From NCBI GenBank assembly GCA_951406725.2, contig OX597823.1, forward strand, positions 12,586,001-12,650,000: DNA of 64,000 nt, given 5' to 3'. A program made the position numbers and the translations under genes. The notes below the pieces were generated by a model, which saw nothing but the letters and a program-made list of their open reading frames with translations, had not been told where the DNA came from and ran no database searches. This DNA comes from Octopus vulgaris (Eukaryota). Below are positions 9,430 through 35,575 of this stretch, piece by piece (position 1 is the stretch's first letter; each line of letters begins with the position of its first letter).

Positions 9430-10660
9430 CATCTAGTACAAATTATTATAGAAATATTTCCAGCCATTCAATTTGGGGGATAATTTTGTTATGAGATATT
9501 TTTCCATATTTCTCCTGAAGGAGGTGTCATTCTCTGGACATTTGTAGAAGGGAAATATCTTAAATTTTCCTTATCCACATGTAGCTAGGTGTTTACTCAG
9601 TGGAATCTTTCGCAGTTCATCCTGTCGGACATGTTGTCGGTTAATCCTGGCTCGTTGGCATAAAGAATTTTCAGTTTCACCTATATAATTCTCCTTGCAT
9701 GTGGGGCAGGTTATGCAGTATATTACGTTCTGCGTCTTGCAGTTCATGTCTGCATTTACTTTGAATATGTGACCACGCTTACATTTTATTTGTTTATCTC
9801 CCGCTATATATTTCAAGGTGGGGTTACTGCAGACCCCACATCTACCATCTCTATACTCTTTTACAAAGAATTCGGTTTTAGTTTCTGATAAGAATTTCGC
9901 TCTTGTTAGTTGTTTATCCAGGTTTTTGTCTTGTCATTTACTGTTTTTTATGCGATATTTGTTTAATATGTTTCCCATTTTGGGGCTTTGTAGGACTATT
10001 GGTAAGTTTGAATGTATGAATTGAAACATGTTGGTAACTCCAGGGTTGTGCGTGTTTATGAAAGGGATGATGTTTTCTTAGTTTCTCGTTTTTAGAGTTC
10101 TGAGTTGTGTGATGTCTAGTTAGTTTCATTGCTCTTGAGATTCCATTTTTTATTACTTTGAGTGGGTATTTTTGTTCTAGTAGGAAGTTTTTAAGTTCAT
10201 TTAGTCTTATTTGGCGTGTTTGTGAGTCGGTTACTATGCTGCATATGCGTTTTGCCATACTATATGGGATGTTTTTTTGTATGTTGCATGGGTGGCAGGA
10301 GTAGAAATTTAAATATTGGTGTGTGTCGTTTTTTTTTTTTGTAGTGGATGTCTGTTGAGATGATGGAGTTGTGTATCTTGATGTTGATGTCTAGGAAAGG
10401 AAGTTCGTTGTGGCTTGTATCTTTCATGAAGTTGATAGATGGGTGTAGTATGTTGAAGATGTTGCGGAATGTTCGTAGATCTTCTTCTGATATGTTCCAA
10501 AAGATGAAGCAGTCATCGAGGTAGCGTTTCCACTTTTTCTTGATGTCTTCTCTGAAGTCATGTTCGAAGACTTTCCCTATTTCATCGTATAGTTTTTCTC
10601 AAGGAAACCCATCACAATGTTGGCATATGAAGGTGCGAATTTTGTACCCATAGCTGTTTG
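9430..10660 (-). mobile_element. Penelope-like element remnant (RT C-terminal part, Cys linker, GIY-YIG endonuclease); pseudogenised
   Basis: Minus-strand TAMGTKFAPSYANIVMG, WKRYLDDCFIFW, LPFLDI, MAKRICSIV, CKTQNVIYCITCPTCKENYIGET...RARINRQH; frameshifts present. Confidence 0.92.
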
Positions 10661-14297: not shown

Positions 14298-14421
14298 ATT
14301 TATCACTACAAGCACGCGTTTCGAAGAAAGCCGACAGAAATTTCTAAAAATCCCGTTATTACCATATCGGACCCGATTTCAGAGTTAGTTCATAAGAGCC
14401 TTCCCTTCATCAGTGATAAAT
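14298..14421 (-). ncRNA. Hammerhead-like motif (type I, long helix II insert) in a TA-flanked pLTR-like island
   Basis: Minus strand: ATTTATCA-CTGATGA-AGGGAAGGC...GCTTTCTTC-GAAA-CGCGTGCTTG-TA-G-TGATAAAT. A-C pair closes helix II and there is one extra G after the triplet. Confidence 0.55.
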
Positions 14422-14470: not shown

Positions 14471-15028
14471 CTTCTCTACTCTAAGTACAAGGCCCATAAT
14501 TTTGGGAGAAGGCCAGTCATTTAGGTCGACCTCAGTACGCAACTCGTACTTACTTTATCGTTCCCGAAAGGATGAAAGGCAAAATCTATTTCGGCTGAAT
14601 TTGAAATCAGAATATAAAGACAGACGAAATACCTATTTCTTTACTACCCACAAGGGGTTAAACACAGAGAGGACAAACAAGGACAGACAAACGGATTAAG
14701 CCGATTATATCGACTCCAGTGCGTAACTGGTACTTATTTAATCGACCCCGAAAGTATGAAAGGCAAAGTTGACCTCGGCGGAATTTGAATTCAGAACGTA
14801 GCGGCAGACGAAATCCCTATTTCTTTACTACCCACAAGTGGCTAAACACAGAGAGGACAAACAAGGACAGACAAACGGATTAAGTCGATTATATCGACCC
14901 CAGTGCATAACTGGTACTTATTTAATCGACCCCGAAGGGATGAAAGGCAAAGTCGACCTCGGCGGAATTTGAACTCAGAACGTAACGGCTACGCATTTCG
15001 CTCGGCGTACTAACGTTTCTGCCAGCTC
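14471..15028 (-). mobile_element. SINE family A multimer (three body units, ~184-bp period)
   Basis: CCTATTTCTTTACTACCCACAAG at 14632 and 14816; head ends GCCAGCTC at 15028. Confidence 0.9.
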
Positions 15029-15899: not shown

Positions 15900-17484
15900 G
15901 GTGAGAGTGATCACTCCAGTAGCCACAGCATTGCATCCTTATCCGCTACAGAGTTTATTCCTGTCTGAGATACCAGCATCCGGCCGGGAAGAATTAGAGA
16001 GAAAAGGCCAATGGAGAGACCGTTATATTCTCCTAGCTGAAATTCGCAAATTTCGTTATAGGTTGTCGAGAGAACATGTTGAACCAGAAGTGACTGGAAA
16101 AATCTACCTCAACAATTGGTACATATTATTTAATGAAATAAGAGAGAAACTGAAAGAATTTGAAATACTATTAATTCAATTTTCAAAACTGTAAAATTCG
16201 CAATGAAATGCGGCCAAGACCATCTCTCCACTTCTAGACAGTTATTGAAATGTCTAAAATTCAAATGGAAGAAACCGTAGGCTATAAATTCAAAGACACT
16301 AAACATTATCTACTTTTCAATTCGTTCAATCTGAAAGACATCAGAGTAAGCGTCCCGTATAATTTAGTCAAAAGGAGCAGGACAATGGTACTCGACAAAA
16401 ACAAGAGCGACGTAGTATTTGAAGAGCTTAAAGACACACTCCTGGACCCAAAATTACCCATTAAGTTTGATAGCTGATTGGATACAAGTAGTCAAAATAT
16501 TTTATATAGAGATACTTAGACAAACAAAAGAAAGAAATGTCTCTTCTCTATATCTCCATCTACAATGCTAAATACTGCTAGACCTACAATGTCATTTCGC
16601 AAAATATACCCAAATTAAAAGTGTACGCCAGAATAAATGATATCTTACATACACTTACCATTAAAAGCTAAAGAACTAATGGTAAATGTTAACAAATACT
16701 AAAACAATGATTGAACTATACACGTCTCCGAAGAACAAACAGTAAAAAGTGTGAACGTTCCAAATGTGCCGCGTCTTTAAACTTAAAAGATGGATCAGAG
16801 TTATCTTTTAAATGGATATAAATTTTTCATATAAAAATCAAAACTTTACTTGAGCATACGAAAACTTAATTCGTACAAATAGCCCTCAGTGAATATATTG
16901 ATACGTTTAGTGATAAGAAAGATACATATTTTACAATTTTAGTCCTTGTATCAATATGTCGCCCTCCCATCGAAACAGCATAGAATAAATAAGGAAGTCA
17001 TATCTATACCAAAATGGCGACCACATCTCAATATGTATGTGGAGTCGACCCATACCAAGGTGATCAAATAGGATAGGCAAAAATAGTACAGAAGCCCATC
17101 AAATGGAGATTATATCTGCAGTTTAAATGGCACAGCATTGTTACAATTTCTGTGGAATTGATTCTGCCTGAAAATTCTGTTACGAGTACGAGAATATGCA
17201 GAATGCGAGGGTGCTTAAACGTTAGTTCAAGAGCAATAAATTCAGTTGACCAAACAATTAAAAACTCATCCTCGAAGACAGAGAACACCTGTAGCCACTA
17301 CACACATTTTTATCTCTCCTTGTTTCTTTCTGTATTCCTTTCTGTGGAAGAGCGTAGGCTCGAAACGTTAAAGACTTTTTTTCAATTCCCGACCGTTATA
17401 CTAATACATCTGTTTGTTTTCTACACTAGCTGTCTTCGTTTTCTACACTAGCTGTCTTTTGTTTTTTTCCTGAATTCTCCCCCG

Positions 17485-20698: not shown

Positions 20699-20792
<94 letters not shown>

Positions 20793-20910
20793 AATCAAGG
20801 AACGGCCATAATAGGCCATTCACCCACTAGAAATAACAGCCAAAAGCTTTAACCGCAAAATAACATTAATTCCGTAAACCAGGAGAAAATTGAAAAACTT
20901 TTACCCTGTA

Positions 20911-21017
20911 ATTTCTTAGACGATGCACCGTTTCATCTACCGTTTAATGGTAAACTAACCTGATTAAATTAAATCAAGCCAATCCACCATAGGCCCTTAG
21001 ACTCATCAGTAAGAAAT
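20911..21017 (-). ncRNA. Type I hammerhead ribozyme, copy 1
   Basis: Reverse complement of ATTTCTTA-CTGATGA-GTCTA...TAGAT-GAAA-CGGTGCATCG-TC-TAAGAAAT; full conserved core. Confidence 0.9.
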
Positions 21018-21400
21018 AGCCAAGTCGGAACAGATATTTTTCACGAGGCATTCCTCTTGCTACCTCGGCAATATCTGACCTAAAATTTTCAAATCGTCGC
21101 ACTCGCGCCAAATTTATCGGCAGCAAATAAATATAAGCCACCGATTCCATTACGGAACTAACCAGAAAATTCATAATTAATCAATATAGGGTGGCAAAAA
21201 AATTTTGTAGAATTCTTTTGCCACCAGCGGCCTAGTAGGAAAAAATTAAATAGTCATAAACCATTTTTACGTTCAACATCACAATCAAGGAACGGCCATA
21301 ATAGGCCATTCACCCACTAGAAATAACAGCCAAAAGCTTTAACCGCAAAATAACATTAATTCCGTAAACCAGGAGAAAATTGAAAAACTTTTACCCTGTA

Positions 21401-21507
21401 ATTTCTTAGACGATGCACCGTTTCATCTACCGTTTAATGGTAAACTAATCTGATTAAATTAAATCAAGCCAATCCACCATAGGCCCTTAGACTCATCAGT
21501 AAGAAAT
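21401..21507 (-). ncRNA. Type I hammerhead ribozyme, copy 2
   Basis: As copy 1, with one substitution (21449) in the helix II extension. Confidence 0.9.
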
Positions 21508-21852
21508 AGCCAAGTCGGAATAGATATTTTTCACGAGGCATTCCTCTTGCTACCTCGGCAATATCTGACCTAAAATTTTCAAATCGTCGCACTCGCGCCA
21601 AATTTATCGGCAGCAAATAAATATAAGCCACCGATTCCATTACGGAACTAACCAGAAAATTTATAATTAATCAATATAGGGTGGCAAAAAAAATTTTGTA
21701 GAATTCTTTTGCCACCAGCGGCCTAGTAGGAAAATATATTTATTTGCTGCCGATAAATTTGGCGCGAGTGCGACGATTTGAAAATTTTAGGTCAGATATT
21801 GCCGAGGTAGCAAGAGGAATGCCTCGTGAAAAATATCTGTTCCGACTTGGCT

Positions 21853-21959
21853 ATTTCTTACTGATGAGTCTAAGGGCCTATGGTGGATTGGCTTGATTTA
21901 ATTTAATCAGGTTAGTTTACCATTAAACGGTAGATGAAACGGTGCATCGTCTAAGAAAT
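21853..21959 (+). ncRNA. Type I hammerhead ribozyme, copy 3
   Basis: Helix I 21853-21860 / 21952-21959 (8 bp); CTGATGA 21861-21867; helix II GTCTA/TAGAT; GAAA 21936-21939; GTC 21949-21951. Confidence 0.92.
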
Positions 21960-22343
21960 TACAGGGTAAAAGTTTTTCAATTTTCTCCTGGTTTACGGAA
22001 TTAATGTTATTTTGCGGTTAAAGCTTTTGGCTGTTATTTCTAGTGGGTGAATGGCCTATTATGGCCGTTCCTTGATTGTGATGTTGAACGTAAAAATGGT
22101 TTATGACTATTTAATTTTTTCCTACTAGGCCGCTGGTGGCAAAAGAATTCTACAAAATTTTTTTTGCCACCCTATATTGATTAATTATGAATTTTCTGGT
22201 TAGTTCCGTAATGGAATCGGTGGCTTATATTTATTTGCTGCCGATAAATTTGGCGCGAGTGCGACGATTTGAAAATTTTAGGTCAGATATTGCCGAGGTA
22301 GCAAGAGGAATGCCTCGTGAAAAATATCTGTTCCGACTTGGCT

Positions 22344-22450
22344 ATTTCTTACTGATGAGTCTAAGGGCCTATGGTGGATTGGCTTGATTTAATTTAATCA
22401 GGTTAGTTTACCATTAAACGGTAGATGAAACGGTGCATCGTCTAAGAAAT
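22344..22450 (+). ncRNA. Type I hammerhead ribozyme, copy 4
   Basis: Identical motif 491 bp downstream of copy 3; GTC at 22440-22442. Confidence 0.92.
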
Positions 22451-22671
22451 TACAGGGTAAAAGTTTTTCAATTTTCTCCTGGTTTACGGAATTAATGTTA
22501 TTTTGCGGTTAAAGCTTTTGGCTGTTATTTCTAGTGGGTGAATGGCCTATTATGGCCGTTCCTTGATTGTGATGTTGAACGTAAAAATGGTTTATGACTA
22601 TTTAATTTTTTCCTACTAGGCCGCTGGTGGCAAAAGAATTCTACAAAATTTTTTTTGCCACCCTATATTGA

Positions 22672-22707
<36 letters not shown>

Positions 22708-28214: not shown

Positions 28215-28273
28215 ATTAAAATATCAACTCCTAATTCAAAATATCAAATCCATTGTAAGCATTGCTTTATATC

Positions 28274-28690
28274 TATTTCTTTATTGTCCACAAAGGGCTA
28301 AACACAGAGGAGACAAACAGGGACAGACAGACGGATTAAGTCGATTATATCGACTCCAGTGCGTAACTGGTACTTAATTTATCGACCTCGAAAGGATGAA
28401 AGGCAAAGTCGACCTCGACGGAATTTGAACTCAGAACATAAAGACAGACGAAATACCTATTTCTTTACTACCCACAAGGAGCTAAAGACAGAGAGGACAA
28501 ACAAGGACAGGTAAACGGATTAAGTCGATTATATCGACCCCGGTGCGTAACTGGTACTTATTTAATCGACCCCGAAAGGATGAAAGGCAAAGTCGACCTC
28601 GGGGGAATTTGAACTCAGAACGTAACGGCAGACGAAATACGGCTACGCATTCCGCCCGGCGTGATAATGTTTCTGCCAGCTCGCCGCCAT
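28274..28690 (-). mobile_element. SINE family A dimer inserted as one unit
   Basis: 15-bp TSD GCATTGCTTTATATC at 28259-28273 and 28691-28705. Confidence 0.92.
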
Positions 28691-35052: not shown

Positions 35053-35575
35053 GCGGGCGAAATACGCAGCCGTATTTTCTCTGCCGTTACGTTCTGAGTT
35101 CAAATTCCGCCCAGGTCGACTTTGCCTTTTATCCTTTCGGGGTCGAGTAAATAAGTACCAGTTATGCACTGGGGTCGATATAATCGACTTAATCCGTTTG
35201 TCTGTCCTTGTTTGTTCTCTCTGTGTTTAGCTCCTTGTGGGTAGTAAAGAAATACATATTTCGTCTGCTGGTACGTTCTGAGTTCAAATTCCGCCGAGGT
35301 CGCCTTTGCCTTTTATCGTTTCGGGGTCGAGTAAATACGTACCAGTTACGCACTGGGGTCGATGTAATCGACATAATCCCTTTGTCTGGCTTTGTTTGTC
35401 TCCTCTCAGTTTAGCCCCTTGTGGGTAATAAATAAATAAAACAAATTCCGCCGAGGTCGACTTTGCCTTTCATATTTTCGGGGTCGATAAATTAAGTACC
35501 AGTTGTGTACCGGACTCGATCTAAAAAACTGGCCACCTTTCTCAAAATTTCGGGCCTCGTGCCTAGAGTAGGAAC
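35053..35575 (+). mobile_element. SINE family A multimer
   Basis: Three CAAATTCCGCC.AGGTCG.CTTTGCCTTT cores in tandem. Confidence 0.88.

Follow-up and report, generated by a model that had tools for sequence, protein, structure and literature searches.

The hammerhead motif considered here lies in a 64,000-nucleotide stretch of Octopus vulgaris DNA (the window) and is probably a ribozyme of an (AT)n-inserted, Penelope-pasted retrozyme, predicted to cut best as a dimer joined through helix III, with its long helix II hairpin likely serving as a folding brace. Its host is a young, non-coding, non-LTR retrozyme-type tandem repeat with Penelope-type scars. The tandem units are dispersed and highly self-paired, each contains one type I hammerhead, and their G+C content is below 50% (181 of 491 nucleotides); within the insertion itself, no ATG frame is longer than 66 amino acids. 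In the window, the insertion (20788-22679) consists of two back-to-back arms within (AT)n (Table 1). A 24-base pattern detected at least 2,562 family copies in the 2.8 Gb genome (227 contigs), in which a control pattern had no match. Subfamilies diverge by up to about 15%, and the family is also carried in contigs of four other organisms.

Table 1. Coordinates of the tandem-repeat insertion, its arms and its predicted hammerheads, given as positions in the window
Feature	Position	Strand	Basis or remark
Full unit, cut site to cut site, 491 nt	21952..22442	+	37% G+C, fold z -5.7
Right arm: unit positions 275-491, 1-491, 1-237; outer end = fixed site B (unit 237)	21735..22679	+	
Left arm: unit positions 163-491, 1-491, 1-131; outer end = fixed site A (unit 131)	20788..21737	-	
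(AT)n target, left	20734..20789		
(TA)n target, right	22677..22705		
Predicted type I hammerhead, copy 1	21853..21959	+	sequence, folding
Helix I, copy 1	21853-21860/21952-21959	+	
Core CUGAUGA, copy 1	21861-21867	+	
GAA (core GAAA), copy 1	21936-21938	+	
Predicted cut; cleavage triplet GUC ends at 21951	after 21951	+	
Helix II arm, 68 nt, copy 1	21868..21935	+	
Proximal helix II, 5 bp, GTCTA/TAGAT	21868-21872/21931-21935	+	
7x7 internal loop of helix II	21873-21879/21924-21930	+	
Distal stem, 19 bp, G-U-rich, UAAUUU loop	21880..21923 (strands 21880-21898/21905-21923)	+	folding
Self-complementary helix III, ACGGTGCATCGT	21939..21950	+	energies, centre variants
Extended helix I, with a small internal loop and then a distal 4-bp stem (21846-21849/21962-21965)	21846..21965	+	fold
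Hammerhead copy 2, identical to copy 1, 491 bp downstream	22344..22450	+	
Hammerhead copy 3; its extension has a C-A mismatch at base 21449	21401..21507	-	
Hammerhead copy 4	20911..21017	-	

The window motif is a real type I hammerhead in structure and probably active, self-cutting being predicted from its sequence and fold. It contains the core CUGANGA / GAAA / UH, and folding together with haplotype comparison yields three helices with an open-ended helix I. Across 103 insertion-haplotypes, whose sampling pattern itself demanded the fixed core bases, N7 is T in 52, A in 22, C in 19 and G in 10, while H17 is A in 59, C in 44 and never G. Among 29 distinct haplotypes, two-sided changes occur at three of the six helix I pairs and at two of the five proximal helix II pairs (A-U to G-C in seven of the 29), whereas six slid controls show none; kinship among these 29 sequences inflates the shuffle control. 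The usual G10.1-C11.1 pair, which is typical of hammerheads and inessential, is replaced by G-U in the window motif and by A-U in 24 of the 29 haplotypes (most older subfamilies). It is G-C in one of the 29, and a genome pattern search for the G-C version returned a single match. At the gathering threshold, Rfam has no match within the window. All four window copies reach 22 bits with Hammerhead_1 (RF00163), short of its gathering score of 34, with E 0.03 and a match over model positions 1-45 of 45; relative to the model, the long helix II counts as an insertion. Rfam matches to microRNA families scored far under gathering and coincided with microsatellites or with the junction of the DNA inversion; they were set aside as artefacts.

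The best predicted fold of a lone motif is inactive, with the core CUGAUG paired to CAUCGU of the helix III side. The active fold costs 2.3-4.5 kcal/mol, or 4.8 in a circle, and such costs are overstated by nearest-neighbour models for catalytic cores. Internal loops are present in both helix I and helix II; GGCC and GGCT are nearly constant across haplotypes without covariation, and GGCT and TTACAGGG are likewise nearly constant. The extended helix I may dock with the internal loop in helix II. Because of the inactive best fold, the G-U or A-U pair at 10.1-11.1 and the precedent of Xenopus, eight of whose nine retrozyme dimers are reported as inactive in vitro (Li, Clavereau & Pollet 2026 preprint, 10.64898/2026.07.22.740005), the window ribozyme may be slow or dead.

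Helix III was described preliminarily as self-complementary with a two-nucleotide loop. Its self-complementarity stands, imperfect in that the homoduplex contains two G-U pairs; a two-nucleotide hairpin loop, however, is sterically impossible. Folding gives the monomer helix III as A15.1-U16.1 plus three pairs closed by a UGCA loop, at -0.1 kcal/mol, and the 12-bp homoduplex at -17.5 kcal/mol. The two central bases of the palindrome would be looped in the monomer and paired in the dimer. In five of six real two-copy stretches, the dimer fold is better than two monomer folds by 7.4-12.8 kcal/mol (9.9 in the window, and 7.4, 12.6, 11.5 and 12.8 in the others), whereas it loses by 3.5 kcal/mol in an array with an AC centre. 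With its self-complementary helix III in tandem copies, the motif resembles dimeric hammerheads, which are established for type I (PMC4209133, PMC7229834, PMC6765202 and PMC3088659, including its Fig. S8 legend), and the earlier statement that a short palindromic helix III allows dimers is already in the literature on type I motifs of animals (PMC4209133, PMC7229834, PMC3088659).

Natural variation at the palindrome centre bears on the same question. The centre is GC in 73, AT in 19, GT in one and AC in 10 of the 103 haplotypes, a sample enriched for AC. Genome-wide, AC-centre copies number 27 in nine places, four of them multi-copy, and AT-centre copies number 808; the AT centre is also present in contigs of two other organisms. 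On the tree, GC is basal (locus L073), followed by an AC clade with the AT clade inside it. As read from the sequences, GC to AC to AT is a restoring double change through which self-pairing was regained. Since this is one event and the AC lineage did transpose, with four multi-copy insertions, it shows a preference for the dimer rather than a need. Furthermore, a scan without a palindrome filter, covering 877 kb of partly overlapping DNA, met 10 other hammerhead motifs, of which eight have a fully self-complementary helix III, and the reversed and complemented DNA used as controls gave no match.

An alternative reading regards the palindrome as incidental and the ribozyme as active in monomers, for which it would be enough that the two internal loops touch each other. 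The arrangement of an 8-bp helix I with internal loop facing a 5-bp helix II with internal loop does resemble extended hammerheads, and newt motifs with looped helix I extensions are reported to cut as monomers (PMC6155905). Nevertheless, the bases that would be free in a monomer loop stay self-complementary in all but the 10 AC haplotypes, as they do in eight of the ten unrelated motifs, and this reading appears improbable. Dimer-enhanced cleavage is judged likely, and a strict requirement for the dimer unlikely. Of the suggestion that this ribozyme may need two copies, dimer competence is supported by the modelled energies, the double change at the centre and the eight other motifs.

The number of ribozymes per arm was also examined across the family. 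The preliminary description had traced the presence of exactly two in each arm to the need for a dimer; this explanation fails, since the count holds in the window but not for the family, in which 114 arms from 83 insertions contain one ribozyme in 68 cases, two in 26 and three to nine in 20. These insertions were chosen non-randomly from pattern matches, mostly on C1, and the strict ribozyme pattern can miss variants. Thirty-one of the 83 hold one ribozyme in all and two hold none by pattern. A ribozyme unable to cut alone, which would fix two copies per arm, is therefore difficult to reconcile with the 68 single-ribozyme arms, although the -0.1 kcal/mol monomer hairpin, the roughly 10 kcal/mol advantage of the dimer fold and the axolotl and newt motifs reported to need dimers (PMC7229834) would all fit it. 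Moreover, templates with an AC centre, for which no dimer advantage is predicted, gave the four multi-copy insertions noted above. The Octopus helix III is also one pair longer than that of certain invertebrate hammerheads, which have a weaker helix III (2 bp plus a tetraloop) and are reported in the same source to cleave as monomers (PMC7229834). On balance, an obligate dimer seems a poor candidate.

The outer ends of the insertions follow a strict rule. In 48 of the 83, both lie at fixed sites, and all 48 combine site A (unit position 125-138) with site B (230-246), with no A/A or B/B case (p 7e-15). Another 28 have one fixed and one truncated end, and seven are irregular. Hairpins occur directly upstream of each fixed priming site (unit 102-116 and 184-221; window 22053-22067 and 22135-22171), and sites A (131) and B (237) fall in stretches predicted to be weakly paired, which, together with the hairpins, are candidates for enzyme recognition. 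In 15 of 21 multi-unit insertions, units resemble one another more closely than they do any other insertion, and in the remaining six they are no closer; private variants are common to all units in eight of the 21 and extend across both arms in three. This likeness fits repeated passes round one template, and a homogeneous linear multimer would also be possible. In one six-unit arm (L067), units 1 and 4 share a variant, a period of three; a trimeric circle proposed from this pattern was rejected, as it occurs in that array only and was not upheld in others.

The linear alternative holds that the template is uncut multimeric RNA, with a ribozyme that is protein-assisted or nearly silent and with no circle. 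It draws on the Penelope-like element of the anole, which is reported to use mainly uncut RNA and whose hammerhead cuts only with protein (PMC11167929), and on the finding that none of the 83 insertions has its 3' end at the cut site. The core and helices are, however, under purifying and compensatory selection, and private variants common to units of both arms call for a homogenising step such as a circle, which makes an uncut linear template a rather doubtful reading.

A Penelope-like origin of the scars is indicated by an inverted 5'-truncated copy, a tail at one end and a microsatellite target, (AT)n. Published descriptions of Penelope-like insertions include an inverted copy and a one-sided tail (Craig et al. 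2021, PMC8557442), as well as initiation at two internal sites with extension of both strands (Frangieh et al. 2024, PMC11167929); in the portions of the literature searched, no description of twin priming for Penelope elements was found. The genome contains an intact autonomous element with the same scar, encoding a 781-aa protein with reverse transcriptase (RT) and GIY-YIG domains. Past its own hammerhead it stops at +70/73 or +108, with (AT)n as the insertion target, and one inverted copy (L115) has one end of each type. This plausible mobiliser of the 491-bp repeat is unproven as such because it has no sequence in common with the unit. Comparison of the unit with the tails of 45 GIY-YIG loci, drawn from 150 scored of 6,136 GIY-YIG candidates, revealed no sequence likeness, the sole strong match being a nested 53-bp scrap.

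The young autonomous element is found at L113-L122, for example at L121:1289-6510, with an intact 781-aa frame matching RVT_1 and GIY-YIG. A CxxxxCxxC motif precedes the nuclease, an arrangement that is Neptune-like by the description available in PMC8557442. An overlapping upstream frame of 479 aa has no Pfam match, and the 510-bp terminal repeat contains a hammerhead with a U3-A8 core variant. In addition, decayed Penelope-like RT/nuclease coding fragments, 32-43% identical to the 781-aa protein, lie in the window at 9466-10657 (- strand) and 16392-16803 (+ strand).

The helix II arm is unusually long. Its extension was confirmed for copy 1 from sequence and folding as paired at 19 of 19 positions, six of them G-U (pairs 6, 7, 9, 11, 12 and 14), and the claim that it folds well on the ribozyme-sense RNA alone is borne out: the distal stem reaches -21.7 kcal/mol on the sense strand (z -8.7, 0 of 200 shuffles as good) and -5.3 kcal/mol on the antisense (z -1.7, 17 of 200). 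Complete pairing is limited to the youngest subfamily. Over the 29 haplotypes, 11 of the 19 pairs are invariant, six vary on one side and pair 5 is mostly mismatched (24 of 29). The covariation proposed as a check was not seen, since no pair of the 19 changes on both sides. Changes at the six one-sided pairs nearly always keep pairing (G-U to A-U or C-G and back), an outcome to be expected anyway for about two-thirds of random transitions, given how many G-U pairs the stem has. The inverted repeat has six mismatches at the DNA level, all of the type that pairs on sense RNA, a sign that the pattern arose, or was selected, at the level of RNA. As a stem, the extension is conserved on the sense strand. 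When it was forced open in folding, helix II probability fell from 0.85-0.89 to 0.05-0.08; this modelled drop reflects only the cost of a 58-nt loop and is no evidence that the extension is required. The 7x7 loop may act as a docking loop, and the distal stem is likely a brace.

The distal stem could also be a functional module in its own right, to which the Penelope protein binds or from which small RNAs arise. Almost no variation occurs in its apical 25 nt, G-U pairs 7 and 14 are unchanged in all 29 haplotypes, and similar long arms recur in unrelated families. The regions before sites A and B of the unit are, however, equally invariant, and dicing would destroy the template. A stem of 19 bp with five or six G-U pairs is also short for Dicer or Drosha products, which counts against a small-RNA role. 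As for binding, the protein of the anole element is reported to need sequence downstream of the ribozyme rather than stem II (PMC11167929). Nothing in the analysis supports a small-RNA or protein-binding role, and an independent module is unlikely.

The richness in G-U could also reflect A-to-I editing of the RNA that reverse transcription then carried back into DNA. Each of the six G-U pairs is compatible with a sense-strand A-to-G change, and inherited branches carry 26 A>G against 13 T>C changes (p 0.002), compared with eight and nine after insertion. The ratio of A>G to G>A is likewise 26:23 on inherited branches and 8:37 after insertion (p 0.0005). The same bias would nevertheless be expected from selection for pairing, under which A-U to G-U is tolerated and U-to-C is not. 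Reversals from G to A occur at pairs 9, 11 and 12, A>T is also high (18), and parsimony polarity is noisy on so shallow a tree. The A>G excess therefore reflects either editing or selection for pairing, inseparable here, and editing is possible without being the favoured explanation.

Helix II arms of 42-69 nt occur in six of the 10 other hammerhead motifs, which makes such architecture common in this genome. A genome pattern search for a relative with a short helix II and the same helix III gave one match only, a deleted family copy. In the literature, helix II is already described as long at 6-8 bp (PMC4209133, PMC13725137), and the parts of the work on retroelement hammerheads that were covered contain no helix II of 60-70 nt, which Lunse et al. 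2017 or the supplement of PMC7229834 may show. The long arm is thus apparently an undescribed variant. The long-armed families from the scan without a palindrome filter, whose helix II spans 42-69 nt and whose helix III is self-complementary, lie in the flanks of L072, L076, L082, L117, L120 and L156. At L091:120-570, a second, unrelated hammerhead element forms an inverted pair beside (AT)n and has a 59-nt helix II arm and a palindromic helix III. The window itself contains another type I hammerhead at 14354-14420 (- strand), beside a 184-bp repeat, with a 26-nt helix II and a 12-nt self-complementary helix III; its family is also present at L078 and L094. Dispersed 184-bp tandem repeats of 2-2.5 copies, about 88% alike, lie in the window at 14526-14989, 28269-28640 and 35076-35438.

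A mechanism can be proposed that connects these features. Read-through transcription of a tandem array would generate multimeric RNA, in which adjacent ribozymes are predicted to form the 12-bp helix III duplex. This duplex would remove the competing CUGAUG/CAUCGU core pairing preferred by a lone motif, and both paired ribozymes would then cut and release unit-length RNA. In each ribozyme, the 7x7 loop after the 5-bp helix II may replace loop II and face the helix I internal loop, and the distal stem, kept paired on the RNA strand, would close the 7x7 loop. The released unit might be ligated into a circle, in which a single, slow ribozyme would leave the template stable, as results in PMC7229834 suggest. 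The scar points to a Penelope-type enzyme that would nick (AT)n and prime both DNA ends on one RNA, one near unit position 131 and one near 237, and run round it for zero to nine passes before the two copying products join back to back. The number of ribozymes per arm would thus be set by the extent of copying, not by a need for two.

A broader reading is distinctly tentative: a class of 'long-armed' hammerheads, with a 40-70-nt helix II, a docking loop, a G-U-rich stem and a palindromic helix III, would act as a copy-number switch in circles copied by Penelope dimers, with A-to-I edits in the stems written into the genome. Such a motif would be active in multimers but silent in the circle, and copying would start from each end of the DNA at one of two fixed positions on the RNA. 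If this recurrent class is real, its members would escape both Rfam and any descriptor that limits the length of the helix II spacer. Hammerhead totals for such genomes are likely too low, because a long helix II keeps the motif under the Rfam threshold and outside searches with core spacers of 7-17 nt, as used in PMC8557442. The strict A/B pairing of ends also provides a concrete model for the unexplained one-sided 'tail' of Penelope insertions, in which both DNA ends are primed at different sites on one RNA. The dimer idea is already known and gains natural support from the Octopus family. Dimer cleavage of animal hammerheads has so far rested on in vitro constructs, and the GC, AC and AT centres constitute a natural mutant-and-rescue set that makes the relevance of dimers in vivo directly testable.

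Among known systems, the repeat resembles metazoan non-LTR retrozymes, as presented in the available text of Cervera & de la Pena 2020 (PMC7229834) and the preprint 10.64898/2026.07.22.740005, in its low-GC tandem units, which are non-coding and contain a single type I hammerhead apiece. Further similarities are dispersed multimers and co-occurring Penelope-like elements, and the axolotl retrozyme shows dimer-enhanced cleavage (PMC7229834). Unlike those retrozymes, however, the Octopus unit measures 491 nt, and its helix II arm spans 68 nt where theirs is a stem of 4-5 bp with a loop. Arms placed back to back and two fixed priming sites in (AT)n are undescribed for non-LTR retrozymes in the passages available, which likewise include no cephalopod-type genome; circles and cleavage in Octopus are predicted.

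With Penelope-like insertions, as described in the accessible parts of PMC8557442 and PMC11167929, the repeat shares partial tandems, an inverted 5'-truncated copy, a tail at one end and microsatellite targets, as well as two-site internal initiation with extension of both DNA strands (PMC11167929). In contrast to Penelope-like elements, it has no open reading frame (ORF), its tail is about 106 nt rather than 30-40, both insertion ends have AT microhomology to the target, and there is no pLTR homology to the sampled autonomous families.

Finally, the dimeric hammerheads of Penelope-like elements and of newt and ASBVd (Cervera & de la Pena 2014, PMC4209133; PMC6765202; PMC3088659) are reported to have, like the Octopus motif, a self-complementary helix III and loop able to pair between tandem copies. 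They differ in having a helix III of 1-2 bp with a 2-4-nt loop, whereas the 12-nt Octopus palindrome allows a monomer fold to exist, and the Octopus helix II greatly exceeds the 7-8 bp there termed 'larger than usual'. Unlike those hammerheads, the Octopus family also offers a natural GC-AC-AT series.
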